Virus record (IMG/VR): IMGVR_UViG_3300050336_000030
Length of the DNA: 64,000 nt
DNA from: a virus
Lineage: Duplodnaviria > Caudoviricetes
Reading direction: 5' to 3' (one strand)
The notes beneath the pieces were generated by a model. It had not been told where the DNA came from, searched no databases, and was given only the letters and a program-made list of their open reading frames with translations. Of the stretch, positions 11,810 to 64,000 are shown in pieces. How positions within the stretch are numbered: position 1 is the first letter of the stretch; each line of letters starts with the position of its first letter. The position numbers and the translations under genes were made by a program.

Positions 11810-12013
11810 ATGGAGGTAAACAGTATGGATAATTTAAGAATCTACAAATTAGCATATGAAAGACTATTACAGGAGTTAACTTTTGAGAAAAGCAAGCCAC
11901 AAACTGAATTAGTAAAGAACAAAGTTATTGAACTTGATAACGAGGTTATATGGCTTGATGAACAGATTAAAAAACTAGAATACGAGAAAAGTTTAGAATT
12001 TTGGTACAAATAA
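11810..12013 (+). CDS. Hypothetical phage protein
   Basis: ORF with GGAGG RBS before the second Met. Confidence 0.65.
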   Translation: MEVNSMDNLRIYKLAYERLLQELTFEKSKPQTELVKNKVIELDNEVIWLDEQIKKLEYEKSLEFWYK

Positions 12014-12028
12014 ATCTAACATTTTATA

Positions 12029-12271
12029 GTGATTATAGGAGGAAATAACATGGTAAAAAGAATTGAAACTAGGCTAAATTGTATGATTGATTGGTTAGAA
12101 AAGGAATCTATTGAGTATTCAAGAGAAGAGTTTAAAAAAGATGTTGAAAGAATGCAAGATGCAATAAATGAAGCATTATTCATTGATTTAATAACAGATA
12201 AGCAGTATTCAGAACTTACAGAATTAGTTAAAACAAAGTCTATTAAGTATTTTTTAAATAAATCAAATTAA
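12029..12271 (+). CDS. Hypothetical phage protein
   Basis: ORF; AGGAGG RBS before the internal Met. Confidence 0.65.
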   Translation: MIIGGNNMVKRIETRLNCMIDWLEKESIEYSREEFKKDVERMQDAINEALFIDLITDKQYSELTELVKTKSIKYFLNKSN

Positions 12272-12274
12272 GAA

Positions 12275-12345
12275 TTTATATGCAGAGTGGCAGAGGATAA
12301 AACCTCTGTTAATGCACTAGCTAAACGGTCACAAGTCCGATAAAC
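12275..12345 (+). ncRNA. Twister ribozyme, type P5
   Basis: GCAGAGTG-[GCAGAGG/CCTCTGT]-TAATGCAC...CGGTCACAAGTCCG; pseudoknots GTGG/TCAC and AC/GT; P5 TTTAT/ATAAA; predicted cleavage 12310^12311. Confidence 0.85.
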
Positions 12346-12376
12346 AAGGCACTACCATATTATAGGAGGTTGTACA

Positions 12377-13114
12377 ATGGCAAGTATAGATTTTATAAGT
12401 AAACGTATCCAAGGTAAACAAAAGGAAATTGACAAATTAAATAAGAAGCTTGAAAGAATTCAGAAAGCTAAACAATCTAATTGGGAAAAGAACCCTTATT
12501 ACTATAGCGAATATGATTTAAACAGTACAGAAAAGGAATTGAATTTTGCAATTAAACAGCTTGATAGTTTGCAATCTGATTTACAAACAGCAAACGAAAA
12601 AGCAAATAGCCGTAATGTATTAGCAATAACTCAATTTTTAGATGCTTGGTTACAAAGAAATATAGAATTCTACACAGAGGAAAAGGAAAAATATGATATA
12701 GCTTTATCTGACTACCGGCAGCATGATAGAGATTACTGTAATTGGTTTAATTCACTAAGACATAATGTAACGGTAGAGAAAAGAAAAGAAGTAGAAAAGA
12801 ATCACAAAGAGTATAGAACTAATTTTATTAAATCTTGGAATACACAATTTGACCACGGAACTAAAGAATGGCATGAAACAATGCATAACGATTTAAAAGA
12901 GGAATACAATCGTAAATACGATTATATAATCGAAAAGACAAACGAAATAGTAGGCGAAATTACAGACGCAAGCTATTTAACAGTAGACGCAAACGGAAAT
13001 TTAAACGGCTACATTATAGGAACAAGAGGAAAAGCAAACGTCAATACAATCGGTGCAGGTGGTTACAATATACAATGTTATCATTTCAGAACGCTAATTC
13101 ATGAAATTAAATAA
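12377..13114 (+). CDS. Hypothetical phage protein (coiled-coil N-terminus)
   Basis: 245-aa ORF, strong RBS. Confidence 0.75.
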
Positions 13115-13169
13115 CAAAAGTAGTAATCAAACAATTATTTTATTCATAGTAAAGGAGAAATGAAACATT

Positions 13170-13427
13170 ATGATTAATATTGATACATGGGTTAGAGGAT
13201 ATAAAGTAAGGGCTTTTAATTGGGTAGATAACAATAGTATATATTTTAATGTACAATATTTTCAATCTGGTCAATCAATTAGTAAACCTCCTGTTTGGGA
13301 TAAAACAGTATATATTACAGATAATGAGGCTGGACAAAAGCTTATAAGAGAATTTTTAGATTCATTAGTTGAACATGTTGCAAAAATGCAAATTATAAAT
13401 GGTAATAAAGTAGTAATAACAGCATAG
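13170..13427 (+). CDS. Hypothetical phage protein
   Basis: RBS; bounded by 18-bp sites at 13126 and 13424. Confidence 0.7.
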   Translation: MINIDTWVRGYKVRAFNWVDNNSIYFNVQYFQSGQSISKPPVWDKTVYITDNEAGQKLIREFLDSLVEHVAKMQIINGNKVVITA

Positions 13428-13430
13428 AAA

Positions 13431-13646
13431 GTGCATTTTATGAAGTATAAGCAATATAAAACAATAACAGGAGGTAACACGATGTTATCATATGAAGAGA
13501 TCAATAAGAATCAAAAGGAAGACAAAAATTATATTGCAATCGGTGACAATGGAAAAGAATATACAGCTTCATGGGTAGTAAAATATCCGGCAATGTTTTT
13601 CTGTATTCCGTCAACCGTTGAAGTTATCGGTTATAAAGAAGCATAA
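13431..13646 (+). CDS. Hypothetical phage protein (likely start 13482)
   Basis: GGAGG RBS before MLSYEE. Confidence 0.6.
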   Translation: MHFMKYKQYKTITGGNTMLSYEEINKNQKEDKNYIAIGDNGKEYTASWVVKYPAMFFCIPSTVEVIGYKEA

Positions 13647-15919: not shown

Positions 15920-17313
15920 ATGACAGTAGAACAGACAAATAGAATTAACATTACGCTTGATAGAGCAATAGAGCAGAATAAAATTGACAATAAAACAGAT
16001 GCAGTTATAACAGAAAATAAAGACGGTTTAGCTTTACTTAATTGGAAGAATTCAAGACGAAGTTTTTGTTTTACAATATTTCAGGATGGATCAATTCATA
16101 GCGGAAAATTTGGAATGTGGCAATAAAATTTTATAACTTAAAATTGTAATTTCATGTGGTGTCATAGGACACAGAAAGAAGGATATTATGGAAATTAAAA
16201 TAAACGAAACTTACACATTTAATCATAAGGAAGGAAATGTATTAGAAAAATATGATGGAACACAATGTAAGATAATTAGTAAAGATAACATGCATAATGA
16301 TATGTATTTTGCAGAAATGTGTGATGGTAGAAAAATTCAAGTTTACACAAAAGAATTAAGCAGATAGAAAATAGATTTTATAAGCCTTTAAAAGCTAGAA
16401 AGTAGGTTAATATGGAAATAAATTTTAATAAAAATGTTCCAAAGGAAATAGAAAAAAGAACGATTGAAAATATAGAAGTATATAAATTAAGTCTTGGAGA
16501 CGCATTTGAAGAAGCTGTAAGGGAACTTGCTAAGAAAGGTACTAAATTATGGAAAGCTTGGTATTATAGCGATTTTAGAGAATATCTTCCTGAAATATAT
16601 CGAAAAGAATATCTTGATTTTAGTAAGTATCCGTTAAAGTATTAATAACAAATAAATATGAACCAAAGACGGTTTTTATCAAGAAAGGAGATAATAATAT
16701 GACAGTTAAACAGGCAGCGAAAGGTGTAGTGTCAAATATAGGAACAAGAACTTATGATATAGATTTTATTAACAGCGATGGTGAAGTTGATGAAACACAG
16801 TTTGATGCAAAAGGAACTGAAGAACTGAGTGAAATATATTCAGAATTCTGTAAAGAAAATGGATTTAAATCTAACACCGTTATTAGTATTACTGATGTAT
16901 AAAATTATTTAATTATAATTAACATTAAAACAGGTTTTATATAGTTAGGAGTTTGGTATATGGGAGCAAATAAGGGAAAGCAAAATATTAGAATGAAAAG
17001 AGTTTGCGAAAGGGTAGCAAATAAAACAACTTATAAGGGATTAACAGAGCAGGAAGTAAAATACGTCAAAACAGTAAGGCAGCATCAACAAATAGAAAAG
17101 GATTTGAATTATTTTTATGCTACCTGTAAAAGAACAGAAACAGGTCAAGTAGACTGGGATTCAATGGACGATAAAGAACTTGATTACTTTGACTATATTT
17201 ACAAGTTATCAGAACGTTTATACAAAAGAAAATCTAATATGGAAGAAAAGTTTGACGGTGACAAGGTTATGAAAAGTTTTCTACAAATAAATAATAGGAG
17301 CATAAGTTTCTAA
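15920..17313 (+). other. Array of small hypothetical genes (15920-16126, 16188-16367, 16412-16645, 16699-16902, 16960-17313)
   Basis: Co-oriented ORFs with RBS; junction sites at 16138, 16364, 16662. Confidence 0.65.
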
Positions 17314-19126: not shown

Positions 19127-19185
19127 ATTTGCCATAATAGGTGTAAACCAAATATTGATTCTATAAGGTGAAAGGGGAGGTTTAA

Positions 19186-19511: not shown

Positions 19512-19853
19512 ATGACATATAATTCTGATATCAAAAATGAATATATTAAATTATCAGGGTTTAAACTTGAAACAAAAGAAATACTTTCATATTTATTTAG
19601 TAAATCAGGAGAAATAGAAAGATCACTAGATAAAGATTTATATGAATTTGAGGTATCTGATATAAAAACATTATTAAATGATTTAAAGTTAAAGTCAAGA
19701 GAAACATTAGAAACAGCATGTGTAATGTTTACTAATTATTACGATTGGTATTGGATTGACTATATGAATGTAGATGTTAGCGGAACGGAAAATCCTTTCA
19801 ACGAAGAAATCGTTAAACCAATAATACAAAGAATATATTTAAAAGCGTTATAG
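19512..19853 (+). CDS. Stand-alone paralog of the MrpR/YopR N-terminal domain
   Basis: Aligns by eye with the 34784 N-terminus (K..Y...T.E.....F..S...E.....DL..F......L......KS..TL......F..YY.W). Confidence 0.65.
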   Translation: MTYNSDIKNEYIKLSGFKLETKEILSYLFSKSGEIERSLDKDLYEFEVSDIKTLLNDLKLKSRETLETACVMFTNYYDWYWIDYMNVDVSGTENPFNEEIVKPIIQRIYLKAL

Positions 19854-19890
19854 AATGAACAATCTATTCAGATTTTAGGAGGAAATTAAC

Positions 19891-20505: not shown

Positions 20506-20579
20506 TCTCGACTAGACGAGTATAAACAGGCATTAGGTCTAGTGCGCCACACCTGTAATAACATCAGGTGTGGGTTGTT
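20506..20579 (+). ncRNA. Pistol ribozyme
   Basis: CTCG-ACTAGA-CGAG, TATAAACA, pseudoknot ACTAGA/TCTAGT, GCG, P3 CCACACCTG/CAGGTGTGG, P2 GGCA/TGTT; predicted cleavage G20574^U20575. Confidence 0.9.
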
Positions 20580-20853: not shown

Positions 20854-21075
20854 TTAATTTAGAGATTTTGGATCATCACTTATACCGGTAATATAATCAA
20901 GAGATATATTAAAAAATTTAGCAAGTAAGATTAATTTGTTAAGAGTTGGTTCTTTTGTACCAGACAAATAAAATTGCAAACCTCTTACAGATATACCTAT
21001 AGCGTCAGCTAATTCTTGATTAGATATGTTATTTTTTTCTTTTAATTCTTTAAGCCTAGTATTAAAGTTTGCCAT
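20854..21075 (-). CDS. XRE-family HTH repressor
   Basis: RLKELKEK..ISNQELADAIGIS...ISLDYITG. Confidence 0.9.
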   Translation of the reverse strand: MANFNTRLKELKEKNNISNQELADAIGISVRGLQFYLSGTKEPTLNKLILLAKFFNISLDYITGISDDPKSLN

Positions 21076-26320: not shown

Positions 26321-27298
26321 ATGTGTTACAAAGACGAGGTTCAAAGAGAATCTATTGAAAAATTAGAAGAAAAATTAGTCAATGTACCGGAGTTTATACA
26401 GAATTATTTTACATTCTTGAACAGTGCTAAGTCTAAAGTCGTATATTGGAGTAATATTCGTTCTTTTTTAGAATGGCTTATTGAACAAAAGGTTATTAAA
26501 AATACAGTAGAATATATTGTAGTTGACGATTTAAAGAATGTAAATGATATTCATATAGTTAAATATTTAGATGGTAGATTAGCAGGTATGTATGGAGAAA
26601 AAATATCTCTCAATACTGCAAATAATAAAATGAATTACATTAGAGGGTTTTGGAGTTACTTACTTGAAAATGATTATGTTCCGAAGAATATAGCAACAAA
26701 AAGAGTTGCTAATAAATACAAAGTAAAAATAGACAAAGAAGTAGAAGTTCCTACTGATGAAGAAGTTGAACAATTTTTAAGCAATCTTGAAAGTATTAAG
26801 AGTGAAATAATAGCAGTTAGAAATATAGCAATCGTTAAGTTATTTATGGGTAGCGGAATTCGTATTGAAGAACTTGTTGGATTGGACATCAATGATTTAC
26901 ATTTAGATGGTAATGAACCATATATTTCTATAATGCGTAAAGGTGAACAACATACAAAAAAAGATTTAGATATAAGTCAATCAGCAGTGGAAGCTATTAA
27001 TGACTATTTAAAAATAAGAAATTTGAATTCTGAATTAAAAGACATGGAACCTTTGTTTTTATCTGAAAGAAAAGATAGATTAGCTCAAAACTCAATTCAA
27101 AAATTCTTTGAAACGTACAGTAATGGAATGATCCATCCTCATATGCTCCGGCATTACGCAGGTACTAAAATGTATGAAAGCAATCATGATATTGTGGGAG
27201 TAAGTGAACAGTTAGGTCATGGAGATATTAATACAACTAAAAAGTATTATGTTAAGTCTGACAAGAGTTCTATTAGGGCTGCATTAAATAGTATTTGA
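26321..27298 (+). CDS. Tyrosine recombinase (XerC/D-like; positionally like SPbeta YopP)
   Basis: Intact catalytic set: GIRIEEL, RKG, HMLRH, LGH, TTKKYY. Confidence 0.9.
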   Translation: MCYKDEVQRESIEKLEEKLVNVPEFIQNYFTFLNSAKSKVVYWSNIRSFLEWLIEQKVIKNTVEYIVVDDLKNVNDIHIVKYLDGRLAGMYGEKISLNTANNKMNYIRGFWSYLLENDYVPKNIATKRVANKYKVKIDKEVEVPTDEEVEQFLSNLESIKSEIIAVRNIAIVKLFMGSGIRIEELVGLDINDLHLDGNEPYISIMRKGEQHTKKDLDISQSAVEAINDYLKIRNLNSELKDMEPLFLSERKDRLAQNSIQKFFETYSNGMIHPHMLRHYAGTKMYESNHDIVGVSEQLGHGDINTTKKYYVKSDKSSIRAALNSI

Positions 27299-27353: not shown

Positions 27354-29483
27354 TTGGTAGAAGAAATGTTTTTAAAACAGAGATTTTATAGTGATATGAA
27401 AGGAAAATTTGTGATGGATGATATAAAACAAATGAAAAATAAATGCCATCAAGTTTTTGATTCCTACTGGGCGAAACAATTAAAGGGGACAGATAAGAAA
27501 CACATTAGAAATGTCAGGAAAAGAGCTTACATTAGATTAACAACTGAAATGAGATTGCCTGATAAAAGATATAGCCATTTTAGTAAAATGAATGACTTAC
27601 AAACACTGAATAAGGCTTATGCAATTATAATACAATGGTAAATATAAACATTATTTCATGTAGAAAGAGAGGATGTTATGTATAAAGTAACGTATTTAGA
27701 TGAAAACAGAAAAGGATTTTCAAATACAGAGCCTTGGATATTAGACGAATTTGAAAATATTAATATAGCGAACAGTGAAGCTGATCGGCTCATTGAAGAA
27801 GGATATAAAGATGTGAAAGTAATACCTGTTAAATTAATTACTTGGCAGTGTTTAAAAAAGCTAAATAATGAAGAATTGTTAAATTTAGTAACAGATATTA
27901 ATAACGGCACTAGTTATACAGTAGATGGATATGAAGATATTTATCCTACTGATGAAGAAATTTTAGATTATGCAGGAGTATAAATAACACGATAAAAAAC
28001 GATTTTTATTTTGATTTATAAAAAGGAGATGTTTTTATTTGAAACATATTGTAACAACGGTGAATGAAAGAGCTGGAGTTTATCCAGTAGGAACAAGTTC
28101 TTGTTTTAATATAGGTATTAGTGGTAATTGTAAAAATAATTGCTACAAGTGTTCTGCATTTGATAATGATGAAATGACAGATCAGGATATTGTTGATAAT
28201 TTTGGAGTAGAAGAACAGGAACGTATGTTAAAAGAATTTGAAGAATGTGGTGATTTATAAATAAAAAATTTTGTTGGAGGATTTTAAATGGCAGCAATAT
28301 GTAAAGAGTGTGGATGTGAAGATTTAAGATTTGACGAAAATATAGGTTATTATTGCAATAACTGTTCTAGTGTAAATATTTTATATTTTAAACAATATGA
28401 AAGTGAAAATTTCACAATAAAACAATTAAAAAGTAAATATAAAGAGCAGATAAAAAAGTAATTTTGTTTAGATTAAAAAAAGGAGATGATAAAAATGAGA
28501 TTAACTAATAAAACAGAACGTTGGAGTATGGGAAACGAAACGTATAAAGGGAAATACAAAGGATATGAATGTAATATTAGCTATTCTTCAGAATATTATA
28601 GTAAAATTCCATTTTGGTATTTTACATGTACTAGTAAGGAAGATAAAAGTTTTAATTCATTGTGGAATAGTTTAAAGTACAATACAAAAGAAGAGTGCCA
28701 TGATGCTTGTATAAAATATATTGATGAAGATTGTAAATGAACTTAAATTTTGTTTGGTTATAAGGAGGATGATAAGATGAAATTAACTGATAAGACAGAT
28801 AAATGGAGTATGGGCAGTAGAAGATATGAAGGAAGAAAGAATGGATATAAAGTAGCAATTATTTTTTTAGCAAAAAGTTGGGCTGATGAAAACGAATATT
28901 GGTTTTATACGTTGTCTAATGATAACTATAGTTACAATTGTTTATGGGAAAAATTATTATTTACTAGTTATCCAACTAACTTTATATGGTAATTTGCAGA
29001 CCAAACGAGAATTTGGTAGTTATAGAAAGGAATGATAATTATGGATGATATTATTCTATCCAGAGAAGCTTCTTTGAATTTAATTAAACAGTTATGTAAT
29101 CCTGACAAAGAAGCATTAGAAAAAAGAGATGAGTATTTAGCAAGCATATATCAAGCAGTAATAAAAAATAAAGATGGATCTATCACATTAATATGTGATG
29201 ATTTGGATTTGATCGAATTAGAACATCAATCGTCTGATTGATGTTTAAAAATGAAAAGGAGATTAAAATTATGGATAGTAAATTAGAGTATGAATTAAGT
29301 GAACAGTTGGAAACACCAAGCTTTGCCAAGATACATACAAAGGTTATGAGATTATGGTGTGAAGCTGAAGAAGGAACAGAAATGTTTGATAAGTTAAAAG
29401 ACATCATTGATACAATTGAGGAAGAACGAAAGAAATTAGAAAATGTTAAGTCATTAGCTTTTATGATAGCTAATAAATTATAG
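27354..29483 (+). other. Array of about 8 small hypothetical genes (incl. paralogs 28486-28740 and 28777-28992)
   Basis: Junction sites at 27372, 27642, 27992, 28257, 28450, 28736, 29000, 29225, 29484. Confidence 0.65.
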
Positions 29484-30187: not shown

Positions 30188-31405
30188 ATGAAAGTCACAA
30201 GAGTAGAACAACAAATGATTAAGAAAAGTCACCCATTATGGAAAGTTATTGATGAAAAATGTTATCATTCTAAAAACTTATATAATGAAGCTAATTATGT
30301 AATCAGACAAGAGTTTATAAATAATGGTAAATATATTAATTACTATGATATGAACAAAGAATTTAAAACACACGATAATTATAAGCTATGCGGAAGTCAA
30401 CCTGCTAATTGTACTTTGAGGCTACTTGATAAGAACTGGAAATCTTTCTTTGTAGCTATAAAGGATTGGACTAAGAATAAAGAAAAATATCTTGGTATGC
30501 CAAAAATGCCAAAGTATCTTAAAAAGGATGGTAGATATATTTGGAGTATCCCTAACAATACCGTTTTCATTAAAGAAGCTGGTAAAATTCATTTTGCAAT
30601 AAGAAAAATGCAATCGTATAATTGGAAGACTAACGCAAAAGGCAGATTATTACAAGTAAGATTCGTACCAAGAGCAAACTTCTACATGATGGAAATTATA
30701 TATGAAACAGAAGTGATTGATATACCTTCAGATCTTAAATCTAGCAGAATTACATCAATTGATTTAGGGATAGACAACTTTATAACTATGACAAATAATA
30801 TCGGCATTCAGCCAATTATTATTAACGGTAAAGGTATTAAATCCATAAATCAATTTTATAACAAACAAAGAGCCAAGATGCAAAGTGAACTAAAAATAAG
30901 GCATAATAAGTTTACAAGTAACAAATTTATTGCAATGACTAACAAAAGAAATAGGCGAATCAAGAATTATATTCATTGTACTAGTAAATATATAGTCGAT
31001 TATTGCAAGAAAAATAACATTGACACATTAGTTTGTGGGATTAATAAGGAATGGAAGCAAGAATCAAGTATGAGTAAAGTTTCAAATCAAAAGTTTATTA
31101 CAATTCCTTATGATATGTTAATTAGCCAGCTAGAATACAAGTGTCAGGATTATGGCATTAAATTCATCACAACAGAAGAGAACTATACAAGCGGTACATC
31201 ATTCTTAGATGGTGAAATTCCATGTAAAGAAAATTATGATAAGAGCAGACGTATCAAGAGAGGTTTGTTTCAATCTAAAAATCAATTAATAAACAGCGAT
31301 GTAAATGGTTCACTACAAATCATGAAGAAAGTATTTCCAGATGCATTTAAGCAATGCTACGGAATAGAGGGTGTTCTAACCCCTGTAATTATAAGTGTAG
31401 CGTAA
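30188..31405 (+). CDS. tnpB: TnpB RNA-guided endonuclease (IS200/IS605 family, no TnpA)
   Basis: KNLYN, SIDLGIDN, NQFYNK, EENYTS, NSDVNGS; no CxxC zinc finger. Confidence 0.9.
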   Translation: MKVTRVEQQMIKKSHPLWKVIDEKCYHSKNLYNEANYVIRQEFINNGKYINYYDMNKEFKTHDNYKLCGSQPANCTLRLLDKNWKSFFVAIKDWTKNKEKYLGMPKMPKYLKKDGRYIWSIPNNTVFIKEAGKIHFAIRKMQSYNWKTNAKGRLLQVRFVPRANFYMMEIIYETEVIDIPSDLKSSRITSIDLGIDNFITMTNNIGIQPIIINGKGIKSINQFYNKQRAKMQSELKIRHNKFTSNKFIAMTNKRNRRIKNYIHCTSKYIVDYCKKNNIDTLVCGINKEWKQESSMSKVSNQKFITIPYDMLISQLEYKCQDYGIKFITTEENYTSGTSFLDGEIPCKENYDKSRRIKRGLFQSKNQLINSDVNGSLQIMKKVFPDAFKQCYGIEGVLTPVIISVA

Positions 31406-31480
31406 TATGCTACATGATTTATTATAAATCGATTAATAATAATCGAATAGAATGTATATTTGATATGAGGAGAATAATTA

Positions 31481-31867
31481 ATGAAAAGAGATATGGATCT
31501 AGTAAGAAAAATTCTTTTTGCGATTGAAGAACAAAGTGATGGAACAGCTATATATGATCTTGAAATTGAAGGATATACAGACAAAGAAATTGCATATCAT
31601 TGTAAGATATTATTTGATGCAGGTTATTTACTTGATTATGATGCTCAATATGCAGACGGTGATTACTTGATTGGATTTGGTGTTGGTAATTTATCTTGGA
31701 ATGGAAACGAATTTTTGGACATTATTAGAAATGATACAGTATGGAATAAAACAAAAGATACTATAGTTAAAAATGGGTTATCCATGGTAGTCGATGTAAT
31801 AAAATCTATAGCAACTGATATTGTATCGAGTATGACACAGGCTGTTATTAAAGGCATGATACAATAA
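31481..31867 (+). CDS. DUF2513 domain protein
   Basis: MKRDMDLVRKIL...YHCKIL.DAG...LSWNGNEFLD.IR.DTVW.KTK. Confidence 0.85.
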   Translation: MKRDMDLVRKILFAIEEQSDGTAIYDLEIEGYTDKEIAYHCKILFDAGYLLDYDAQYADGDYLIGFGVGNLSWNGNEFLDIIRNDTVWNKTKDTIVKNGLSMVVDVIKSIATDIVSSMTQAVIKGMIQ

Positions 31868-44329: not shown

Positions 44330-44980
44330 ATGAAAGGTTTAAATGATTATACAAATGAAGAATTATCAATGTTAACAGATTCTGAGATTGAAAATTTAAT
44401 TGACGTAGAGTGTATGAAAGCCGGAGTTCCTTTATCTATTACACCAAAGCCTACACTAAAAGAAGTACCTGAAATTAAAGATCCTACAACTGAAATTTTT
44501 CAGGTAGATAATTATTATTTTACTGATAGCAAAGAAGCTAATCAATTAGCTACAATGTTATCTTCGATTACATCAAGAGTAACACTTGATTATAATTATA
44601 ATTCTGGTAGTAGTAATTACAAGTACTATAAGAAATACGAAACTCCTACAGACATTAAAAAGACTAAATGCTATTCAAGAGAAGAATATAATGATTTAAC
44701 AGATATTTTAAAGGCAAGAAAAGACATTGAAGATTATAATAGAAATATTACAAAAGAATATGAAGATGCTGTGTCGGAAAGAAGATATATTGTTGATTCT
44801 GTATGGGATGCTATTAGTGAAGCTCAGTATGAAATGAGAAAAATCAATGAAGCTCTTGATATTTTTAAGAAATATGTTGAATTGTCAGATGGAGACGAAG
44901 AAATCGCGAAGAAGTTCTTTAGTCAAAATGAAAAGGTTTCAGAATATATGGATGATATATTAAAGAGGTATAGTAAATAA
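44330..44980 (+). CDS. Hypothetical protein
   Basis: 216 aa, AAGGAG RBS. Confidence 0.75.
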   Translation: MKGLNDYTNEELSMLTDSEIENLIDVECMKAGVPLSITPKPTLKEVPEIKDPTTEIFQVDNYYFTDSKEANQLATMLSSITSRVTLDYNYNSGSSNYKYYKKYETPTDIKKTKCYSREEYNDLTDILKARKDIEDYNRNITKEYEDAVSERRYIVDSVWDAISEAQYEMRKINEALDIFKKYVELSDGDEEIAKKFFSQNEKVSEYMDDILKRYSK

Positions 44981-45013: not shown

Positions 45014-45379
45014 ATGAATGAGCAAGAATTAGAAGATGAAGTATTTAAATATTATGATACTCCGTTTATAAATAAGTGTAAAGATTTGTTACGGGAAATA
45101 TCGGTTACTTTAAAGAATTTTGGATTTGTTGATAAATATTTTGAATATAAAGAAGATAAGATTACTAAAGAAGAGTTAGAAAATTACTTTTATGATACAC
45201 TAATTAAATTAGATGAATATAGAAGACATGATTTAAATGAATTGTCTAAAATGTTATCATCTTCAAATTGTGGATGGTATGAATATAAGATTGGTGAAAT
45301 AATACATAATCAGTTAATAAAAATTTGGTTTTTAGATGAATTTAAAGATAGTAATATGAAACAAATGCTTGACAAGTAA
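45014..45379 (+). CDS. Hypothetical protein
   Basis: RBS. Confidence 0.7.
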   Translation: MNEQELEDEVFKYYDTPFINKCKDLLREISVTLKNFGFVDKYFEYKEDKITKEELENYFYDTLIKLDEYRRHDLNELSKMLSSSNCGWYEYKIGEIIHNQLIKIWFLDEFKDSNMKQMLDK

Positions 45380-45596
45380 ATTCAAATGATGTATTATAAT
45401 ATTGTAAGTAATAGTTATATGAAACAGTAAAATGAAAGGTGGTGAGTACAATGAGTATGGAGCAACTTGACTGGCTGGATAGAAGAGGAGTCAACAATCC
45501 TGGCGAATATAAGTTAGTACGCCAAACAAAAACGCATGTTTATTTAAGACATCGACAATATGGATATGTAATTGAAAGAAAAAAAGATATGCCAAA

Positions 45597-45983
45597 TTGG
45601 GTATTTTAAGTAGAAAGGAGAAAATTACAATGAAGATTTATTCATCAGATGGAAAAGAATTTGGAAAAGATAATATGACTATGGAAGAATTGGCGGATGC
45701 TTTTAAAAAATGTAGTACATATGAGGAAGAATTAAATAGTAAAAAAGCTAAAGCTGAAGCTGAAAAGAAAGAGAGGGAACAAAAGAAAAAGATTTTATAT
45801 GAGCAGATTAAATCAGAGATGGATAAAATTAATAAATTGCTAGATGAATATAAAAAATCTGATGGCAGACCTCTTTGGGTTGGATGTGATAATGGAAAAA
45901 TTTATGTAGATGAATATATTTCTTGTTCAAGTCTAAATTATGATTGGGTGAAAAATTTTAGAGAAGCATTAGAAAGTTTATAA
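45597..45983 (+). CDS. Hypothetical coiled-coil protein
   Basis: RBS before the internal Met. Confidence 0.65.
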   Translation: MGILSRKEKITMKIYSSDGKEFGKDNMTMEELADAFKKCSTYEEELNSKKAKAEAEKKEREQKKKILYEQIKSEMDKINKLLDEYKKSDGRPLWVGCDNGKIYVDEYISCSSLNYDWVKNFREALESL

Positions 45984-46062
45984 ATCAAGTTTTTTATTTA
46001 GAAATTATAGTAATAGTAATGTGAAACATAAAAATAATACATATTAAAGGAGAATAAAGAAT

Positions 46063-47310
46063 ATGGGTTTAACATTTGAAATGGTAGGAAAAATAAGTTT
46101 AGGAAAGGATACAGAAAAATTCCATCCTTATGAAGAAAAAACTTATGAAAAGTCTGGATGGTCAAACAAAACTATAAGATTCAATGTGACTAGTGGAGAC
46201 AATAGACATCTTTTGCAAGTTAAAGCTGGTGCATTTGCTGATGGTCATGGGGATGTTTATTCTTATACAAAAGGATATACTAACGAAAGTGGAACAAAGG
46301 TTAAAGGTGAATCCATTAAAATACCCTTTAAAGATAGATTGACATCAAAAAGATTGCCTGAGATTGCAGAATTTAAAAAGTTTGTATTTGATTTGGAGAA
46401 ACCTAATAGAAGATACAAACTTGAAAAAGCTGCGGAAAAAGTTAAAGAAGGAACTAGTTTAACAGATGAAGAATTGAAAGATTTGGAAATTGAATCAGAA
46501 GATAATTTAATTACTGCTATTGAAAAAAGCAAAAAGAAACGTCATGAATTTATTTCCGAATGGGATTTTGTTGAATTTATAAAAAAAGTAATTGATAGTG
46601 GAAAGTATTCTAATAATAAGTTTTTTATTAAAGGAAACGGAGATTATTCTTATTCTGAAGATAAACAAAAGATTTATGAAAATTATATTCCAAATAGAAT
46701 TTATCTTGCTTCCGATGATGCCGAAGAATATTCTCATGCAACTTTTACCATTTTATTCAATCAAGATTCTTTTGATGAAATGTCTTTGGAAGAAAAAAAT
46801 AAATATTATGTCAATGGTTGGATGATGGAATATGATCAAAATAGAAAATCAAATATTCCAGTTCCCGTAACCGTCGTTATTAATAATGTTGATGAAACAG
46901 ATAAAGATGCTGTAAAGAAATTAAATGCAACAAAGAGAAAATTTGTAGTTGAAGATGAAAAACTTTATGAGTATGGATGTGTAGTTAATATGCTCAATGG
47001 AGCACAAAAAACAGAAATTACAGATGATATGCTGACAGACGAACAAAGGGAAGATTTGGAATGTGGTCTTATTACAATGGATGATATTAGAGCAGAATTA
47101 GGAGGTTCTGTTTATGGTGATAGAATACAAGAATATCAGTTTTTAAAAGTTGCAAAAGGATGGAGTAAAGGAAGAAATGCAACAGTGTTTACTACTGACG
47201 ATATGAGAATTAAGCCAATTGAAAGTAATGTGGATTCTGGCGAAGAAATTGAAAATCTATTTGAAGAAGATAGTATTGATGAAGACGCGTCCGATGATGA
47301 TGATTTATAA
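46063..47310 (+). CDS. Putative single-stranded DNA-binding protein (YorF-like position)
   Basis: First gene of the replication operon; beta-rich with a very acidic C-terminal tail. Confidence 0.5.
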   Translation: MGLTFEMVGKISLGKDTEKFHPYEEKTYEKSGWSNKTIRFNVTSGDNRHLLQVKAGAFADGHGDVYSYTKGYTNESGTKVKGESIKIPFKDRLTSKRLPEIAEFKKFVFDLEKPNRRYKLEKAAEKVKEGTSLTDEELKDLEIESEDNLITAIEKSKKKRHEFISEWDFVEFIKKVIDSGKYSNNKFFIKGNGDYSYSEDKQKIYENYIPNRIYLASDDAEEYSHATFTILFNQDSFDEMSLEEKNKYYVNGWMMEYDQNRKSNIPVPVTVVINNVDETDKDAVKKLNATKRKFVVEDEKLYEYGCVVNMLNGAQKTEITDDMLTDEQREDLECGLITMDDIRAELGGSVYGDRIQEYQFLKVAKGWSKGRNATVFTTDDMRIKPIESNVDSGEEIENLFEEDSIDEDASDDDDL

Positions 47311-57129: not shown

Positions 57130-57254
57130 ATAGTTTTATGAAACGATAGTTGACATCATGAAAAATCTGTGCTATTATTAAATCATACCAAAGAAAAGGG
57201 GTTGAAATTAATAATATCACAGATTTTTAGCACATTGTGATAGTTATATGAAAC
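57130..57254 (+). promoter_or_regulatory. Operator-flanked sigma-A promoter of the RNA-repair block
   Basis: ATAGTTTTATGAAACG, TTGACA 57150, TGcTATTAT, second operator at 57240. Confidence 0.7.
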
Positions 57255-57306
57255 TTAATAAAAGTTAAATTCTATCTGCATATTAGTAATAAAAAAGGAG
57301 AAGATT

Positions 57307-58326
57307 ATGGATTTTAAGAAATTATTAGATACAAAAGAATATGAATTTTTGAAAACAGATGAGCATTTAGGAAATAAAATTATCTTATTGGGATTAGGGG
57401 GATCACACGCTTATGGAACCAATATTGAAGGTAGTGATGTAGATATTCGTGGCATAGCTTTAAACAGCAAATCAGATTTAATCGGAATGAGTAATTTTGA
57501 ACAGAGAGTAAATGAAGCAACCGATACTACTATTTATGCCTTTAATAAGATTATTGAATTATTACTTAATACTAATCCAAATACAATTGAGATGTTAGGA
57601 CTTAAACCGGAGCAATACTTATATATCTCACCAATTGGTCAGGAATTACTTGACAATAAAAAGCTGTTCTTATCAAAAAGATGTATTTATTCATTTGGAG
57701 GATATGCAAATCAGCAGCTTAGAAGATTGCAAAATGCTATCGCTAGAGATACATTAACACAGACTGAAAGAGAAACACATATTTTAAACACTATAAAAAA
57801 TATGATGTTTGATATTAAATCAAGATATGAACAGTTTGAAAACGGTTCAATTAAATTGTATACGGATAAGGCAATTCAAGAAGATATGGATACAGAAATA
57901 TTTATGGATATCAATTTAACTCACTATCCATTAAGAGATTATAAGAGTATCTGGTCTGAGATGAATAATGTAGTAAGAGATTATAGTAAAATTGGTAAGC
58001 GTAATAATAAGAAAGATGATTTACACCTGAATAAACACTGTATGCATTTGATCAGATTATATATGATGTGTTTAGATATTCTTGAAAAAGAAGAAATTAA
58101 TACTTATAGAGATAAAGAACATGATTTACTTATGAATATTCGCAATGGTGAATATATGCATGAAAACGGAACTATGAGACAAGAGTTTTGGGATTTATTA
58201 AATGAATATGAAAAAAGATTTGAGTACGCAAAAGAAAACACAAATCTTCCTGCTAATCCAGATTACAAGAAAGTGGAAGAATTTGTGATTAGCGTAAATG
58301 AGAGGGTGGTAAGAGGTGAATATTAG
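57307..58326 (+). CDS. Pol-beta superfamily nucleotidyltransferase (Nuc-transf/RlaP-like)
   Basis: GGSHAYGTN..SDVDIRG, NPN..E, HLIRL. Confidence 0.85.
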   Translation: MDFKKLLDTKEYEFLKTDEHLGNKIILLGLGGSHAYGTNIEGSDVDIRGIALNSKSDLIGMSNFEQRVNEATDTTIYAFNKIIELLLNTNPNTIEMLGLKPEQYLYISPIGQELLDNKKLFLSKRCIYSFGGYANQQLRRLQNAIARDTLTQTERETHILNTIKNMMFDIKSRYEQFENGSIKLYTDKAIQEDMDTEIFMDINLTHYPLRDYKSIWSEMNNVVRDYSKIGKRNNKKDDLHLNKHCMHLIRLYMMCLDILEKEEINTYRDKEHDLLMNIRNGEYMHENGTMRQEFWDLLNEYEKRFEYAKENTNLPANPDYKKVEEFVISVNERVVRGEY

Positions 58327-59659
58327 ATTTAATTTACCTATAGAGGTAGAAGAGATATTACGACTACTTAATAAAAACGGATATGAAGCGTATATCGTAG
58401 GAGGTTGTGTAAGAGATAAAATATTAGGCAGAACTCCTCATGACTATGATATCTGCACATCTGCCAAACCAGAAGAGGTTATTAATGTGTTTGAGTATTT
58501 TAAAGTAATTGAAACTGGATTAAAACATGGGACAGTAACAGTAATGATTAATAATGAGCCATTTGAAATCACTACATACAGGATTGATGGTAAATATTCA
58601 GATAATCGTAGACCAGATAGTGTAGATTTTACATTGAATTTAGAAGATGATTTATCACGTAGAGATTTTACGATTAATGCAATGGCTTATAGTAAAGAAA
58701 AAGGATTGATTGATCCGTTTCATGGAATGTACGATATTCAAAACAAAGTAATTAGGTGTGTAGGTACTCCTGAATATAGATTCCAAGAAGATGCATTGAG
58801 AATATTAAGAGCAATGAGATTTTCAATTCAGTTAGGATTTAAAATTGCAAGATCAACATTTGAAGCAATGATTGATAACAAGAATCTAATATCTAATGTT
58901 TCTTATGAAAGAATTAATGCGGAGTTAATGAAAATGCTTGAATTCCGTAAGCCAATATTAGAACATTTCAATGGTTGCAGAGATATTATAGCTGAATTTA
59001 TTCCTGAATTTGTTCAGTGTTTCGATTTTAAGCAGAATAATCCATATCACTTATATGATGTTTATAATCATATTTTACACGCCGTAGATAACTATATTGG
59101 CGATGATATGAAAATAAAACTGTCATTGTTGTTACATGATATAGGTAAACCGGATTGCTATTCAGAAGATGAAAACGGTGGACATTTTATAGGACATGGA
59201 ATTGTAAGTTCCGATAAAGCAAAAGAAATATTAATAAGATTGAAGTTTGATAACGATACTATAAAATCTGTTACAGAATTAGTGTTATATCATGACTCTA
59301 CTATCGAACCAACAAATAAAACAATTAAGAGATGGTTGAATAAAATTGGTGAAGAACAATTTAGAAGACTAATAGAAATTAAAATGGCAGACATGACAGC
59401 ACATTCAAATACTGGTTTAGACGTTAGATTAGAAAAACATAAACAATTATGTGAAATACTAGAAAGCGTTTTATTAGAAGAACAATGTTTTTCCATGAAG
59501 GATTTAAAAGTAAATGGAAAAGATTTATTGAATATAGGATACAAAGAAGGAAGACAATTGGGTGCTGCGTTACAAGGATTGCTAGATTGTGTGATTGCAA
59601 ATGAAGTAGAAAACGACAAAGAAAAATTGTTGATATTGGCGAAAGGATGGATTAAATAA
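58316..59659 (+). CDS. cca: CCA-adding tRNA nucleotidyltransferase with HD domain
   Basis: VGGCVRD, DYD, EITTYR, RRDFTINA, EDALRILR, ERI, LLHDIGK. Confidence 0.92.
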   Translation: MNIRFNLPIEVEEILRLLNKNGYEAYIVGGCVRDKILGRTPHDYDICTSAKPEEVINVFEYFKVIETGLKHGTVTVMINNEPFEITTYRIDGKYSDNRRPDSVDFTLNLEDDLSRRDFTINAMAYSKEKGLIDPFHGMYDIQNKVIRCVGTPEYRFQEDALRILRAMRFSIQLGFKIARSTFEAMIDNKNLISNVSYERINAELMKMLEFRKPILEHFNGCRDIIAEFIPEFVQCFDFKQNNPYHLYDVYNHILHAVDNYIGDDMKIKLSLLLHDIGKPDCYSEDENGGHFIGHGIVSSDKAKEILIRLKFDNDTIKSVTELVLYHDSTIEPTNKTIKRWLNKIGEEQFRRLIEIKMADMTAHSNTGLDVRLEKHKQLCEILESVLLEEQCFSMKDLKVNGKDLLNIGYKEGRQLGAALQGLLDCVIANEVENDKEKLLILAKGWIK

Positions 59660-60549
59660 TGAAGTGTTTCTATCATGGAGATAAAGACGGAGAATGTGCT
59701 GGATTTTGGGTTTATTTAAGTGCTGGTTTATATGATGGATATGAAACTGATAGTAAGTTTATAAGAATAAATTATGGTATGGATTTTCCGTTTGATGATA
59801 TTAGAGAGAATGAACAGGTTTATATCGTTGATTATTCAATTTCTCCAGACGAAATGAGAAAGCTGCTTGCAATAACAAAAGATGTAACTTGGATAGATCA
59901 TCATAAGACAGCAATAGCAAAGTATAAAGATTTTGAATATGATTTGCGTGGAGTTAGATATGATGGTGTAGCCGGATGTATGCTCACATACTGTTATTTA
60001 CACCACATGACAGAAAGAGGTCAAGGAGAAATTAAACCTTTTGATTTATCAATGACGAAAGATGCACCAATGTTTACAAAATTACTGGCAGATTATGATG
60101 TTTGGACTTTTGAATACGGTGATGATACAAGATATTTTCAAACTGGTGTAAATTCTTATGATTTTGAACCTGAAAATAAAAGATGGTACGATTTGTTAGA
60201 CGATGGATCGGAACAGACATACATCGAAGAAGGTAAAATCATGATTAAATTCAGAGATAATTGGGCAAAAGATTATTGCGAATGTAAAGGATTTCAAACA
60301 GAATTTGAAGGACATAAATGTTATGCTATGAATTTGGGTTTGTGTAGTAGCGAATATTTTAAATCTATTGATGATGGTACTTACGAAATATTAATTGCTT
60401 TTTCTTATAACGGTAAAAGTTGGTCGGTAAGTTTATATTCAAAAACGGTTGATGTATCTGATATTGCTAAAAAGTATGGCGGTGGAGGACATAGAGGAGC
60501 TGCCGGATTTAATAGTGATGAGTTATTATTTCAAAAAGACGGTCAATAA
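59659..60549 (+). CDS. DHH/DHHA1 phosphoesterase (nanoRNase-like)
   Basis: YH.D.DG, IVD, IDHH, GGGGHRGAAGF. Confidence 0.88.
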   Translation: MKCFYHGDKDGECAGFWVYLSAGLYDGYETDSKFIRINYGMDFPFDDIRENEQVYIVDYSISPDEMRKLLAITKDVTWIDHHKTAIAKYKDFEYDLRGVRYDGVAGCMLTYCYLHHMTERGQGEIKPFDLSMTKDAPMFTKLLADYDVWTFEYGDDTRYFQTGVNSYDFEPENKRWYDLLDDGSEQTYIEEGKIMIKFRDNWAKDYCECKGFQTEFEGHKCYAMNLGLCSSEYFKSIDDGTYEILIAFSYNGKSWSVSLYSKTVDVSDIAKKYGGGGHRGAAGFNSDELLFQKDGQ

Positions 60550-60645
60550 GTATACAACATATAGTAATTGATATTATAAAGATACTATATATTGATTGAA
60601 AATGCACATAAAACACTGTTTTTATGCGGTTAGAAAGGAGATAAA

Positions 60646-61239
60646 ATGACTGATAAAGAAAGAATGGAAGAGATTAAATCAGATTGGTTTTCAAAACACA
60701 AAGCTACTTATCAAAAGTTAAGTGATGAAACATCGGTACTTACATGGAAAGAAGACGGGACATCGATGTATCATGTTAGATACGTATTCGACAGAAATAG
60801 ATTATTTATAACAGGAGATATAGGAGATGCGGTATTTGTACTTACTGAGAAAGCTAACTTCAAAACCATAGCTTCTGAATATAGTATGCATTATTTATTT
60901 GGAAAACTTAGAGCAGATAATGAAGCATATGACTTTGATAGTGAGAAAGCTATTGAAACACTTAAAGATCATTTTAAAGATTATGAATTTGATAATGACG
61001 AAGACAAAAAAGAGTTTAATGAAATGGCAGAAGAAATTTATTCGTGCATACGAGAGGAATGTAACACAGAAAATCAATGGGCTACTGCTCTAAATTGTGA
61101 TTATTACGATAAATTAACTGAATACGACGTGGATTGTTGGGAGTGGATTTATGCTATTGGCAAAGAGTTAAGCTGGCAAGCATTAGGTTGGGTAGTTGGA
61201 TTGCAGATGGCTTATAAACAGTTAAAAGATTCACTATAG
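60646..61239 (+). CDS. Hypothetical phage protein
   Basis: 197 aa, RBS; LFITGDIGDAVF motif. Confidence 0.75.
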   Translation: MTDKERMEEIKSDWFSKHKATYQKLSDETSVLTWKEDGTSMYHVRYVFDRNRLFITGDIGDAVFVLTEKANFKTIASEYSMHYLFGKLRADNEAYDFDSEKAIETLKDHFKDYEFDNDEDKKEFNEMAEEIYSCIREECNTENQWATALNCDYYDKLTEYDVDCWEWIYAIGKELSWQALGWVVGLQMAYKQLKDSL

Positions 61240-61568
61240 AAAGATTTAAGAAAGAAGGTAATAATATTTTTACTACATATAATGATGAGTATGTTTTTAT
61301 AAAAAATGAAGATATTGAAAAATGTACATTTAAAGATAGTAGAGTATTAGCAACAAAGGTAACTGTTGGATGTAAAGCAATTTGTGATAAAACTATCTTA
61401 GATGAATTACTTATTAACGATTTGATTAAAGATAATTTCTCTCTAAACATAGCAAAAGAAGATAATTATTATTCGGTTTATTTTGGAGAGAAAAAGGATT
61501 ATGATGTGAAATGGTTTTAAAAATGTAAATGGAAAGAATATTTGGAGTGGTTTTAGAAAGGAGTATAG

Positions 61569-63817
61569 ATGAATGAAACGGGATTATTGGATTGCTATGG
61601 TAATATGATACACGTTGGCGACATCTTGCTGAATCCAATGATGTGTGACTTATGGAAAGTGGAAGAAGATGAACATGGTGAGTTTACTGCAAATCTAATT
61701 CCTAATAGTGGTTATGTTGGTCATCCTGAGAGTGCTAAATATCCATTGTGTGTCGAGGATTTAGATATGATAAACAACGTATTTGAAATTTATAAAGAAG
61801 ATAAATAACGTATTATATTATGAGATCTAGGGGGATTGATGCAATGAAAGAACAAAAATTATATGTATGTGATTATTGTGGAACACAATATAAAGATAAA
61901 GATGAATGTAAAAAATGTGAGCAAGGGCACAATACACCAAAAGAAATAACTGGTGCGAATTATATATCTTTAAAAAGTAACGGAAGTGGGTATCCTACAC
62001 AAATTCACATTAAAATGAGCAACGGAGAAACAATCACATATAAGAGATAAATTGTTAACAGAATCGGTCTTTTATATAGAAAGGAAAATATGAGAGTAGA
62101 ACAAAAACCAAATTATGAGTTAATCATTAAAACTAATAAATATACTGGAAACTTTGAGAGAGAATTAATTAGTTATTCTCTAGGTACTCTGGATAATGTA
62201 CAAATGGAACTAGGAGATTTCCATGGAGATTATGAAATGGATCTTTTTTGGGAAGAGGAATTTAACACCACCAGAAAAGATTACTATGATGACTATGAAT
62301 TAAAAGATGAATATCTTTTTGAAACGTACCAAGATGTAGATGATTGGGAGCAAATGACTTTTTATCATATAGTTGATGGGAATTCTTTGGCGGTGCAACT
62401 TATTAAACCCTTAAATGAATATTGGGAAGAAATAGTGGTTAGAAGAATTAAAAAGTTCTTTGATGTTCATCCGTGTAAATATACTTGGACACTTCCAGAA
62501 GACGGAATTTTGATAGAATTATATTTAATTGATAAAAATGGAAATGTAATTAAAAAATATATTTAGCAAACCAAATTGTGAATTCATTTTGAAAGGAGGC
62601 AGAAAATGAAAAAATACGAATGTGTTAATGATTTAAATGTAGACTCGGATAAAGATGGTTTAACTTATGTATGCGGAGCGAAATACACAAGTGATAGTTG
62701 CATAATCAGAAAAGAGGGATATTGTGATTTCGGTTATTTTGATAAAAATACAAACACAATACGTTGTAGTAGTATAGATTATTTGAAAAAAGTATAAAAT
62801 CAATCATTTATATTGAAAAGAGGATATATGTTTAAAGCAAAGTTTAAATCAGGAGTATCAGAATCAGTATTATATTTTTATGATTGGATGGTCGAAATTG
62901 AAATATATGATACAAAGATAATTGACAATAGTACATTTTTCTTAGTAAAGCCTTTATATGTTATTAAAAATAAAAAGTGGATATGGTTAAACAGTAATTT
63001 ATTTATTTGATAGGCTGCATTTAGTGCTTAGTGAACTCTAGGTATTAGGCGTAGATTGAAGATAAATATAACATAAAGAAAAGGAGTCTATAATGAAATT
63101 TCTAAATTTATGGAATAGGATAGGAAAACAACCAATAAAAGATACAAAGAAATTAGATGTGGTGGTAGAAACAGAAGATGGAAGATATATAGTCACAAAA
63201 ATCAATTACTTAAATGGCAAATTGTATAGCTTACAGGCAGAACGAATTACATGTAATAACTGTAAAAATTCACCTCAAAATAACAATGGATATTGTCCTC
63301 CACATACCTGTGATATATGCACATCGTTGGATGAGGAAGAGGAGTTTGGAATGTGGAACTTTAAACAAAATAAATAAAACAGTTGATTTATAAAGAAAGG
63401 AGATAATTATGGGATTAGATATAGTTAGTATTTTTAATCCACCCAAAGTAAAAGGGTTTGATTACGAAAACATTGAAAGGGATATTATGCAGTGGAAAAC
63501 TGATATTGAAGAAATGTTAAAAGTTAATAAATACGACATGAATAATTTATGTGTCAACGAGGTATTAGGAACTGTGATTTGTTTAATGCAAGATAATACA
63601 ATATATGAATAATAAAAGGTCTTATGATTACTTTGAAAGTGAGGAAGTTATATGGGAAAGAAAGATATGTCTAAAACCTGCGGATTTAAGGATGCTGAAA
63701 TGGATTATATGGCAGGAAAAGAAATTACATATGAAGAAACAGAAAAATGGTACGACGAAAATTGCAGACAGTGTATATGGGCTAGTGATATTTGTATGTT
63801 TGGAGAAGAATAAATGA
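61569..63817 (+). other. Array of small hypothetical genes (61569 YopX-like, 61820, 62090, 62606, 62813, 63093, 63409, 63605)
   Basis: RBS-bearing ORFs; junction sites at 62058, 62570, 62794, 63374. Confidence 0.6.
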
Positions 63818-64000
63818 AAAAATGTAAATATTCAAATAGTAAATGTACGGATTGTAAATTATGTGAACCAGAAATCGAATTAAATGAAGAACAAATGATA
63901 GTTATATTAAACATTATTGAAAGTGAAGAAAATAAAAAAAGAAAGGATAACATAGATGAACCATAAAAGCTTTATTGATAAGAAGAAAGAAACAGAAGAA

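Follow-up and report, generated by a model that had tools for sequence, protein, structure and literature searches.

Introduction

Promoter-early stem-loop cassettes (PeSLs) of T4-type phages (Arbiol et al., 2010, PMC2839356; Comeau et al., 2014, PMC4122927) are short conserved intergenic elements that recur between small variable open reading frames (ORFs) in plastic genome regions. The insertion, deletion and replacement breakpoints of close relatives lie in these elements, and a modular shuffling of genes by recombination between their copies has been proposed. Here we report on an element that is functionally closest to the PeSLs. It was noticed in a 64,000-nucleotide stretch of DNA (hereafter the window) that comprises bases 32937-96936 of the 139,975-bp IMG/VR virus record IMGVR_UViG_3300050336_000030, a phage genome with a GC content of 28% that stems from an anaerobic-digester metagenome assembly. 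The element is built from two inverted 6-bp half-sites with the consensus ATAAAA and TTTTAT, between which lie exactly 6 variable bp, and hence measures 18 bp. A sequence-only reading of the window had tentatively interpreted it as the recombination site of an integron-like gene-cassette system, with about 50 palindromic copies served by a spacer-tolerant recombinase.

The resemblance to the PeSLs concerns location and behavior. The element is repeated between small variable ORFs of plastic regions and is absent from the replisome block, and homology breakpoints coincide with it, here in the SPbeta family and in a single case in the window phage itself. Anatomy and phage family differ. A PeSL unites an early promoter, a terminator stem-loop and a Shine-Dalgarno sequence over tens of base pairs, whereas the element described here is an 18-bp two-part palindrome with a variable center that possesses neither a promoter nor a stable stem, and it occurs in an unrelated family of temperate phages that infect Firmicutes. 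Mini-circles have been shown for PeSLs, while the element studied here is known from assembled sequences.

Cluster O mycobacteriophages contain 17-bp dyad repeats (Cresawn et al., 2015, PMC4351075) that share with our element the format of a short inverted repeat with a variable center in more than 30 copies, the mostly intergenic position away from promoters, the lack of a known function and the predicted recognition by a dimeric protein. Their arms, however, are invariant, their spacer measures 3 bp, a third of the copies is intragenic, and few or none of them were seen by the authors at the breakpoints of insertions and deletions, whereas breakpoints coincide with the sites that we describe. 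Integrons resemble the arrays in the window in that promoterless single-gene units are delimited by recombination-type sites that often overlap a stop codon. Yet an attC site measures 57-141 bp, acts as a folded single strand with extrahelical bases and travels with one gene; the site found here is 18 bp long, is under no selection for pairing and stays with either neighbor. An integrase of the IntI type, an attI site and a Pc promoter did not turn up (no search aimed at the IntI-specific insertion was made), and the tyrosine recombinase encoded at 26321-27298 lies inside the arrays and not at their head. Membership in the integrons was rejected on the grounds of missing pairing selection, a site not tied to one gene and a context that does not appear IntI-like.

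An 18-bp Element Between Accessory Early Genes

Past about 11.8 kb of the window, all genes are encoded on the + strand. They belong to an early block (44.7-118.6 kb of the genome) made up of many small ORFs and the replisome, which is flanked on both sides by minus-strand late genes. The 22 sites that the sequence-only reading had listed are all present with the sequence and at the position that it gave. When its degenerate arms were searched in the window, a spacer of 6 yielded 31 matches, compared with about 8 for other spacer lengths. This test is circular, as the pattern had been derived from those same sites; hence, three independent repeats were carried out. The part of the early region that lies outside the window yielded 7 junction matches at a spacer length (k) of 6 and about 0.25 for each other k. 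For the early block as a whole, the figures were 29 and about 1.8, respectively (an approximately 16-fold difference), and matches in coding sequences remained at background. With a symmetric pattern, junction matches at k = 6 versus other k amounted to 43 versus about 7 in the window phage (G0), 36 versus about 4 in G1 and 30 versus about 3.5 in G2; G1 and G2 are distant relatives that were found via the replisome protein encoded at 46063-47310 (up to 71% identity). The enrichment at junctions that the sequence-only reading anticipated is consequently borne out as a sharp peak at spacing 6 that is confined to junctions and extends beyond the window.

Other parts of that description have to be revised. 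Instead of about 50 sites, only about 24-30 credible copies were counted in the window, and palindromy as such is not the distinguishing property: generic inverted repeats of the 6-N6-6 format are not enriched, and the listed sites at 16662, 19147 and 43574 are poor palindromes. The observations on placement hold. In 18 of the 39 sites that could be oriented, the left arm includes the stop codon of the upstream gene, no two spacers in G0 are identical, and the spacers are richer in GC than the junctions (0.39 versus 0.26). The sites bound single units of an ORF with its ribosome-binding site (RBS), which begins exactly 3 nt past the right arm in 18 of 29 sites. They are specific to the accessory early arrays, being absent inside the replisome block and nearly absent in the late blocks. 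The zero count at internal junctions of the replisome block must be read with the fact that most of these junctions are shorter than 15 nt or overlapping. Among junctions of 29-45 nt, 14/28 and 20/29 early ones contain a site, and nearly none of those in the late blocks do, so that the element is not a general translation signal.

Searches that were not guided by the pattern gave a weaker picture. An unbiased count of dyads on the junctions ranked the RBS first and a 15-bp repeat (described below) second, followed by TTTA-N3-5-GAAAGG and by TAAA-N7-9-TTTT/TTTA/TTAT. Alignments anchored at the stop codon or the RBS showed a weak positional signal because only a subset of the junctions has the site, and an expectation-maximization motif search recovered nothing but the RBS preceded by TTTAT.

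The individual copies illustrate how closely the element is fitted into the junctions. The left arm contains the stop codon of the preceding gene in ATAAAT-ctaaca-TTTTAT (12010-12027), ATAGAA-agtgca-TTTTAT (13424-13441), ATAGAA-aataga-TTTTAT (16364-16381), ATAGAA-tgaaca-ATCTAT (19850-19867), ATAAAT-cgatga-TTTGAC (31864-31881), GTAAAA-tacgga-TTCTAC (39660-39677), ATAGAA-gaggca-TTTTAT (41543-41560), ATAAAT-caggtg-TTTTAT (42776-42793), ATAAAT-caagtt-TTTTAT (45980-45997) and ATAAAA-tcaatc-ATTTAT (62794-62811). The same holds for ATAAAA-actaat-TTTGAT (38373-38390), ATAAAA-aactga-TTTCAT (40041-40058) and ATAAAA-cagttg-ATTTAT (63374-63391), where in addition the RBS follows after 3 nt. This distance to the RBS is likewise found at the junction sites ACCAAA-gacggt-TTTTAT (16662-16679), which has a variant left arm, ACAGAA-tcggtc-TTTTAT (62058-62075) and ACCAAA-ttgtga-ATTCAT (62570-62587).

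Further junctions are occupied by ATCAAA-caatta-TTTTAT (13126-13143), the weak site ACCAAA-tattga-TTCTAT (19147-19164), ATAAAA-aacgat-TTTTAT (27992-28009), ACCAAA-cgagaa-TTTGGT (29000-29017), ATAAAA-acaaca-ATCTAT (41063-41080), ATAAAA-tcaaag-TTTGGT (43574-43591) and ATAGAA-ttgccg-TTTCAT (44268-44285), in which a match to soil contigs ends at 44279 (see below). ATAGAA-tgtata-TTTGAT (31447-31464) lies at the junction downstream of a TnpB gene, and ATCAAT-cgtctg-ATTGAT (29225-29242) overlaps the end of the gene at 29041-29241. As had been proposed, the junction sites ATAAAA-gttaaa-TTCTAT (57258-57275) and ATAAAA-cactgt-TTTTAT (60608-60625) enclose, upstream and downstream, a block of three overlapping genes (57307-60549) whose products were assigned by Pfam/PHROG scans as nucleotidyltransferase, CCA-adding and DHH proteins.

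Conservation of the Element in Relatives and in SPbeta

The motif occurs throughout the phage family, including the model phage SPbeta, and is hence more widespread than the sequence-only reading had known. In the two distant relatives, the pattern exceeds its reversed control by 37 to 3 (G1) and by 23 to 5 (G2). Each lineage possesses 30-45 sites despite a near-absence of common accessory genes; only a handful of the G0 early-block proteins outside the replisome have a BLASTP match in G1 or G2. Since the sites persist without conservation of the genes, either every incoming gene must acquire a site for its function, or the site belongs to the process of gene entry. The phage family is temperate, and relatives are proviruses.

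In SPbeta (NC_001884), about 21 copies of ATAAAA-N6-TTTTA(A/T) lie between early genes (n = 21 with the strict pattern). One of them carries only a stem_loop annotation, and no description of the element was found in the SPbeta literature that was searched, to which the 1999 genome paper did not belong. The extended junction module is specific to each lineage. In the relative G001 (IMGVR_UViG_3300048929_000179), the right arm between 59 and 113 kb is mostly TTTGAC and is followed by RBS leaders of the AGTGAAAGG type. The SPbeta family has a second conserved junction piece, the leader ttagaataaaaataaaattagtggagg between site and start codon, which was seen in SPbeta 100001-134416, for instance after the sites at positions 113663 and 132746 of the record. 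In phi3T, this leader twice directly precedes another site (7826-7854 and 20959-20987), as though an intervening gene had dropped out from between two junction modules.

Half-Sites Without Covariation

If the arms were to pair with each other in RNA or in a DNA cruciform, the two halves of one site should fit each other better than halves drawn from different sites. They do not. Arm complementarity in the window phage is 4.59 for true and 4.72 for permuted pairs, in none of the three genomes does arm pairing rise above permutation, and in G1 it is significantly below it (4.08 versus 4.41). There is hence no selection for base pairing, and a hairpin was rejected; nor is there a stable stem at the site. 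A reading of the arms as a sigma-A promoter was discarded as well, as the spacing does not fit and no -35/-10 pair matches the site.

The arms nevertheless change in concert between lineages, although they vary independently within a genome, where a weak half goes together with a strong one. At the outermost position, the base pair is A..T in G0 and G..C in G1; the combination C2/G15 is preferred in G1, and G2/C15 (base and position) is common in the second relative. This joint change fits a symmetric, probably dimeric, protein that would read the element as double-stranded DNA. It would be unexplained for a signal acting as RNA, since the two arms differ as RNA sequences. The flanks beyond the 6 bp of each arm show no symmetric conservation.

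Homology Breakpoints at the Edges of the Sites

Breakpoints were examined in the yorM-yotN region of SPbeta, phi3T, Goe11, Goe13 and Goe14 as the ends of megablast homology blocks. Pooled over these five related and hence non-independent genomes, a breakpoint is present at 28 of 31 site-bearing junctions compared with 26 of 63 site-less ones. Homology starts between -11 and +3 of the site in 18 of 23 cases. Of the 19 homology ends, 8 fall at +16 to +20 and 11 at the RBS or start codon. The spacer itself contains none of the breakpoints in the five-phage tally (the raw list has a single start at +9 that was left uncounted). The breakpoints of gene gain, loss and replacement therefore do coincide with the sites at nucleotide resolution in the SPbeta family, yet not inside the 6-bp spacer, where the sequence-only reading had expected them.

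A site whose upstream neighbor differs between phages is retained together with its downstream gene, and the converse holds for a site whose downstream neighbor differs. One identical 18-mer with the spacer TATTCC is found in two left and three right gene contexts, the site with the spacer GTTTTA likewise in two left and three right ones, and that with TCGGTC in three left and four right ones. The common patch of the TCGGTC group reaches about 50 bp owing to a conserved leader and RBS, and the RBS is also where the right-hand crossover is located. For the spacers CTAATA, TTCTAA and GATCAA, combinations of contexts, some of them three-way, require crossovers at the site. Further spacers show such changes of neighbor as well. 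Where the same site with the same spacer has different neighbors, both parents must have possessed it, and the crossover took place in or at the site. The cassette interpretation of the sequence-only reading is thus sustained as far as the sites appear to be exchange points between gene modules in the SPbeta family, but its integron-like details are not: without covariation of the arms there is no sign of folded single-strand sites of the attC type, and recombinant junctions retain an identical spacer, which is the opposite of what a spacer-tolerant enzyme would leave behind.

For the window phage, soil-metagenome contigs that are near-identical over 43618-44279 both end their match at 44279, the last spacer base of the site at 44268, and one of them continues with 22 unlike bases past this point. 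Other contig joints, such as 38386/46045, have short sides (21-25 nt) and were not used as evidence. Direct repeats with the same spacer on both sides of a gene, the signature expected of insertion, were absent from G0, SPbeta, phi3T, Goe11, Goe13 and Goe14; the same-spacer duplicates in G2 seem to come from a duplicated segment. Nor are the spacers mutually more distinct than expected by chance.

Tyrosine Recombinases of the Phage

An Xer-like tyrosine recombinase of 325 aa is encoded on the + strand at 26321-27298 (Pfam Phage_integrase, 8e-30; best PDB match XerH, 7e-16). As the sequence-only reading had stated, the enzyme appears catalytically intact: its R, HxxR, H and Y align with the conserved positions of XerH and XerC-like chains, and XerH, XerC-like proteins and XerA are its closest relatives. 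A second tyrosine recombinase (405 aa) is encoded at 117172-118389 of the genome, at the very end of the early block, at the strand switch and 21 kb past the window; it is likely the integration enzyme. Because it can account for integration, the enzyme at 26321-27298 is an orphan with no obvious task. A serine recombinase is not present in the phage. Judged by the architecture of the site alone, the orphan enzyme is a candidate for binding or recombining the sites.

SPbeta encodes YopP, a core protein of its family with an XerC-type domain and no known function (PMC8612738; PMC10516654). It aligns weakly with the orphan enzyme (20% identity), and in this pairwise alignment YopP seemingly has a K where the second catalytic Arg is expected.

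Other Features of the Early Block

The junction element shares the early block with a 15-bp oriented repeat, ATAGTTATATGAAAC, of which the window contains many copies, for example at 36438-36452, 38955-38969, 45411-45425 and 57240-57254 (69374, 71891, 78347 and 90176 in genome numbering). With up to two mismatches, 29 forward and 5 reverse copies are present in the genome versus 3 and 2 for a reversed control, and they often lie just before or after promoters resembling TTGACA-N17-TATAAT. The repeat is likely an analogue of SPBRE, the operator of MrpR (SroF) in SPbeta, and an MrpR-like protein is encoded at 34784-35794. The segments 38892-38981 and 45347-45439 form an 82%-identical 95-bp repeat that comprises a promoter-like region and two copies of the 15-bp repeat. 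Several sigma-A-like promoters lie inside the small-gene arrays.

Two self-cleaving ribozymes were detected on the + strand. A pistol ribozyme (Rfam RF02679; 59.6 bits versus a gathering threshold of 34.5) occupies a gene junction of the early block at 20506-20579, and a Type-P5 twister ribozyme (RF02684; 51.8 bits versus 37.6) at 12281-12340 sits between the genes at 12050-12271 and 12377-13114.

The gene order in the window resembles yopP-yopQ-yopR of SPbeta. A pair of genes for a yopQ-like product and an MrpR-like repressor with recombinase fold spans 33537-35794 on the + strand; the second protein (34784-35794) was recognized by Pfam/PHROG scans as MrpR_N_CB (4e-13) and by BLASTP as a relative of SPbeta YopR (1e-8). 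This pair places the window phage in the SPbeta-like group. A close relative did not emerge from INPHARED, IMG/VR or the metagenome contigs: megablast against INPHARED returned zero matches, the protein encoded at 44330-44980 has no relative in IMG/VR, the exact protein encoded at 43614-44090 is found in the source contig only, and the relatives of the replisome protein do not exceed 71% identity in IMG/VR or 70% in metagenome contigs.

A TnpB gene lies at 30188-31405 on the + strand (Pfam/PHROG scan). It has a diverged counterpart outside the window (108.5-109.7 kb of the genome); both belong to the OrfB_IS605/Cas12f-like TNB type, share 64% DNA identity over 611 bp, and are each followed after about 40-80 nt by a 6-N6-6 site. 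The scans also found HNH, GmrSD_N and DUF6551 genes, and assigned the protein at 26321-27298 to the Phage_integrase family. The gene at 28495-28740 is followed by a tandem paralogue at 28777-28992, the two matching at 73% over 110 bp. Internal duplications of the genome are few, and none ends at junction sites. The ends of the record (1-55 and 139921-139975) overlap exactly over 55 bp, the annotated "direct terminal repeat," which may reflect a circular assembly rather than true physical ends.

Discussion

The reading that we prefer, and which we hold to be about evenly balanced between right and wrong, is that of a protein-bound junction element of SPbeta-like phages that serves as a crossover point for gene exchange by general recombination. 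A symmetric and probably dimeric protein would read the element as double-stranded DNA and not as a hairpin. Placed between a stop codon, often within its left arm, and the next RBS, often exactly 3 nt past its right arm, the element would leave each ORF with its RBS bounded by two copies. As accessory early junctions possess the element and equivalent junctions of relatives have the same center, short patches of identity are thereby provided in a harmless place. Related phages or prophages residing in the same cell could recombine within these patches, and whole genes would be swapped undamaged. The most likely route would be short-homology recombination via a phage single-strand annealing protein or the RecA protein of the host, as has been proposed for the PeSLs of T4-type phages. 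Such a route accounts for all cases, including the crossovers at the RBS.

Several observations weigh against this proposal. The breakpoint trend points in the same direction in each of the five genomes, but p = 0.003 is reached only in phi3T and values of 0.1-0.3 in the others. Breakpoints also occur at 41% of the site-less junctions, and viable breakpoints must fall at junctions anyway. The breakpoint at 44279 agrees with the SPbeta pattern, but it is the sole usable one from the window phage, a single case from one study. Short homology by itself leaves the palindromic arms and the fixed 3-nt distance to the RBS unexplained, so that a further function is needed, and an identity of 18 bp is short for recombination of the RecA type. 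The protein that binds the element is a putative one.

We consider it unlikely that the element is instead a substrate of dedicated site-specific recombination, in which the Xer-like enzyme (26321-27298 in the window phage, YopP in SPbeta) would bind the inverted arms as a dimer and exchange strands at the borders of the 6-bp center. Under this same, rather doubtful, scheme identical centers would be needed, and swaps would be limited to equivalent junctions of related phages, a position-addressed cassette exchange. The core architecture of the element is that of an Xer site, with two inverted arms around a center of exactly 6 bp (enrichment is seen at this spacing only) and an Xer-like enzyme encoded nearby. 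The A-run and T-run beside the center recall difH (left arm AGTTATGAAAA) and difSL (TTTCCGAAAA / TTTTCTTGAAA) (PMC5357621). An enzyme that looks intact and has XerH, XerC-like and XerA proteins as its nearest relatives is left free by the second recombinase, and YopP, as a core protein, likewise awaits a role. Furthermore, recombinant junctions retain the same spacer, and the fact that no spacer is repeated within a genome would prevent internal deletions.

However, Xer arms measure about 11 bp and occur once per replicon, whereas here 6 bp per arm are conserved, with flanks devoid of symmetric conservation, and 25-45 copies have different centers. Recombinant junctions with an identical spacer and breakpoints at the edges of the site are a pattern that short-homology recombination also produces. 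The 11 of 19 homology ends at the RBS or start codon, and not at the site, imply that general recombination in the conserved junction modules operates anyway, and it explains all cases. A gene between two sites with the same spacer, the insertion signature, is missing, the spacers are not more distinct than chance would make them, the orphan enzyme and YopP align only weakly (20% identity), and in this weak alignment the second catalytic Arg seems to be replaced in YopP. Finally, a recombinase has no need of a fixed 3-nt distance to the RBS.

It also seems rather improbable to us that the element is purely an operator, through which a dimeric phage or host protein on 25-45 intercistronic sites would silence or shut off the early operons as a stoperator-like roadblock, or tune early expression in another way. 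On this account, which we likewise consider unlikely, the breakpoints would match the sites merely since both are confined to gene junctions. Symmetric half-sites in which a weak half is compensated by a strong one are typical of dimer operators; the sites are specific to the early block, hold a fixed position beside the RBS, and occur in a temperate family with provirus relatives. Dispersed sites in large numbers have precedents in the stoperators of Cluster A (PMC9283540) and in the dyad repeats of Cluster O (PMC4351075); stoperators and the SPBRE sites of MrpR (SroF) are, moreover, protein-binding sites scattered over short intergenic regions of a temperate phage. Stoperators and SPBRE are asymmetric, though; they follow the direction of transcription, and a monomeric repressor binds to them (PMC9283540). 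Identity of the symmetric junction element with either was therefore rejected, and the separate oriented 15-bp repeat fits that role. The master-repressor sites of the family are a different, asymmetric element of 15-24 bp, of which the window has its own analogue, and the protein that would bind the proposed operator is a putative one. Above all, the site is kept with either neighboring gene, and selection for gene boundaries alone does not predict the same site and spacer in both parents.

Very improbable, in our assessment, is a signal that acts at the RNA level on the polycistronic early transcript, whether as a small AU hairpin, as a site of processing or RNase action, or as an operator for translation. 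Such a signal would profit from the constant position in transcribed intercistronic space near the RBS, and early RNA is processed elsewhere, given the pistol and twister ribozymes in two junctions. But the arms do not covary, A/C mismatches are common, a 6-bp AU stem would be unstable, the symmetric change of the arms between lineages has no explanation on RNA, and the motif is missing from the late genes. An origin of the motif by chance, from AT-rich composition together with stop codons (TAA + A) and U-rich leaders, is refuted by the spacing controls and has a negligible probability. The low GC content of the genome, the frequent identity of the left arm with a stop codon plus AA and the lack of enrichment of generic 6-N6-6 palindromes might be cited for it, but the sharp peak at spacing 6 is confined to junctions in four independent genomes, the arm does not provide the gene's stop in 21 of the 39 oriented sites, and the G1 half-site GTCAAA contains no stop codon.

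If the site-specific variant were true, position-addressed exchange would swap single genes at the same "address" in related phages and prophages, and these phages would possess an integron-like plasticity without a scrambling of gene order or deletions within one genome. The element further points to a possible function of YopP, whose core gene has no known role, and annotators gain a marker for the borders of modules in SPbeta-like phages. It has long been asked whether phage mosaics arise by random illegitimate joining followed by selection, or whether conserved linkers serve for the exchange. The element occurs in the uncultured 140-kb phage from the digester and in its distant relatives, and equally in the genetically tractable phages SPbeta and phi3T of Bacillus subtilis. 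As it is present in the latter two and coincides there with crossover points, the question of mosaicism becomes testable in a model system.

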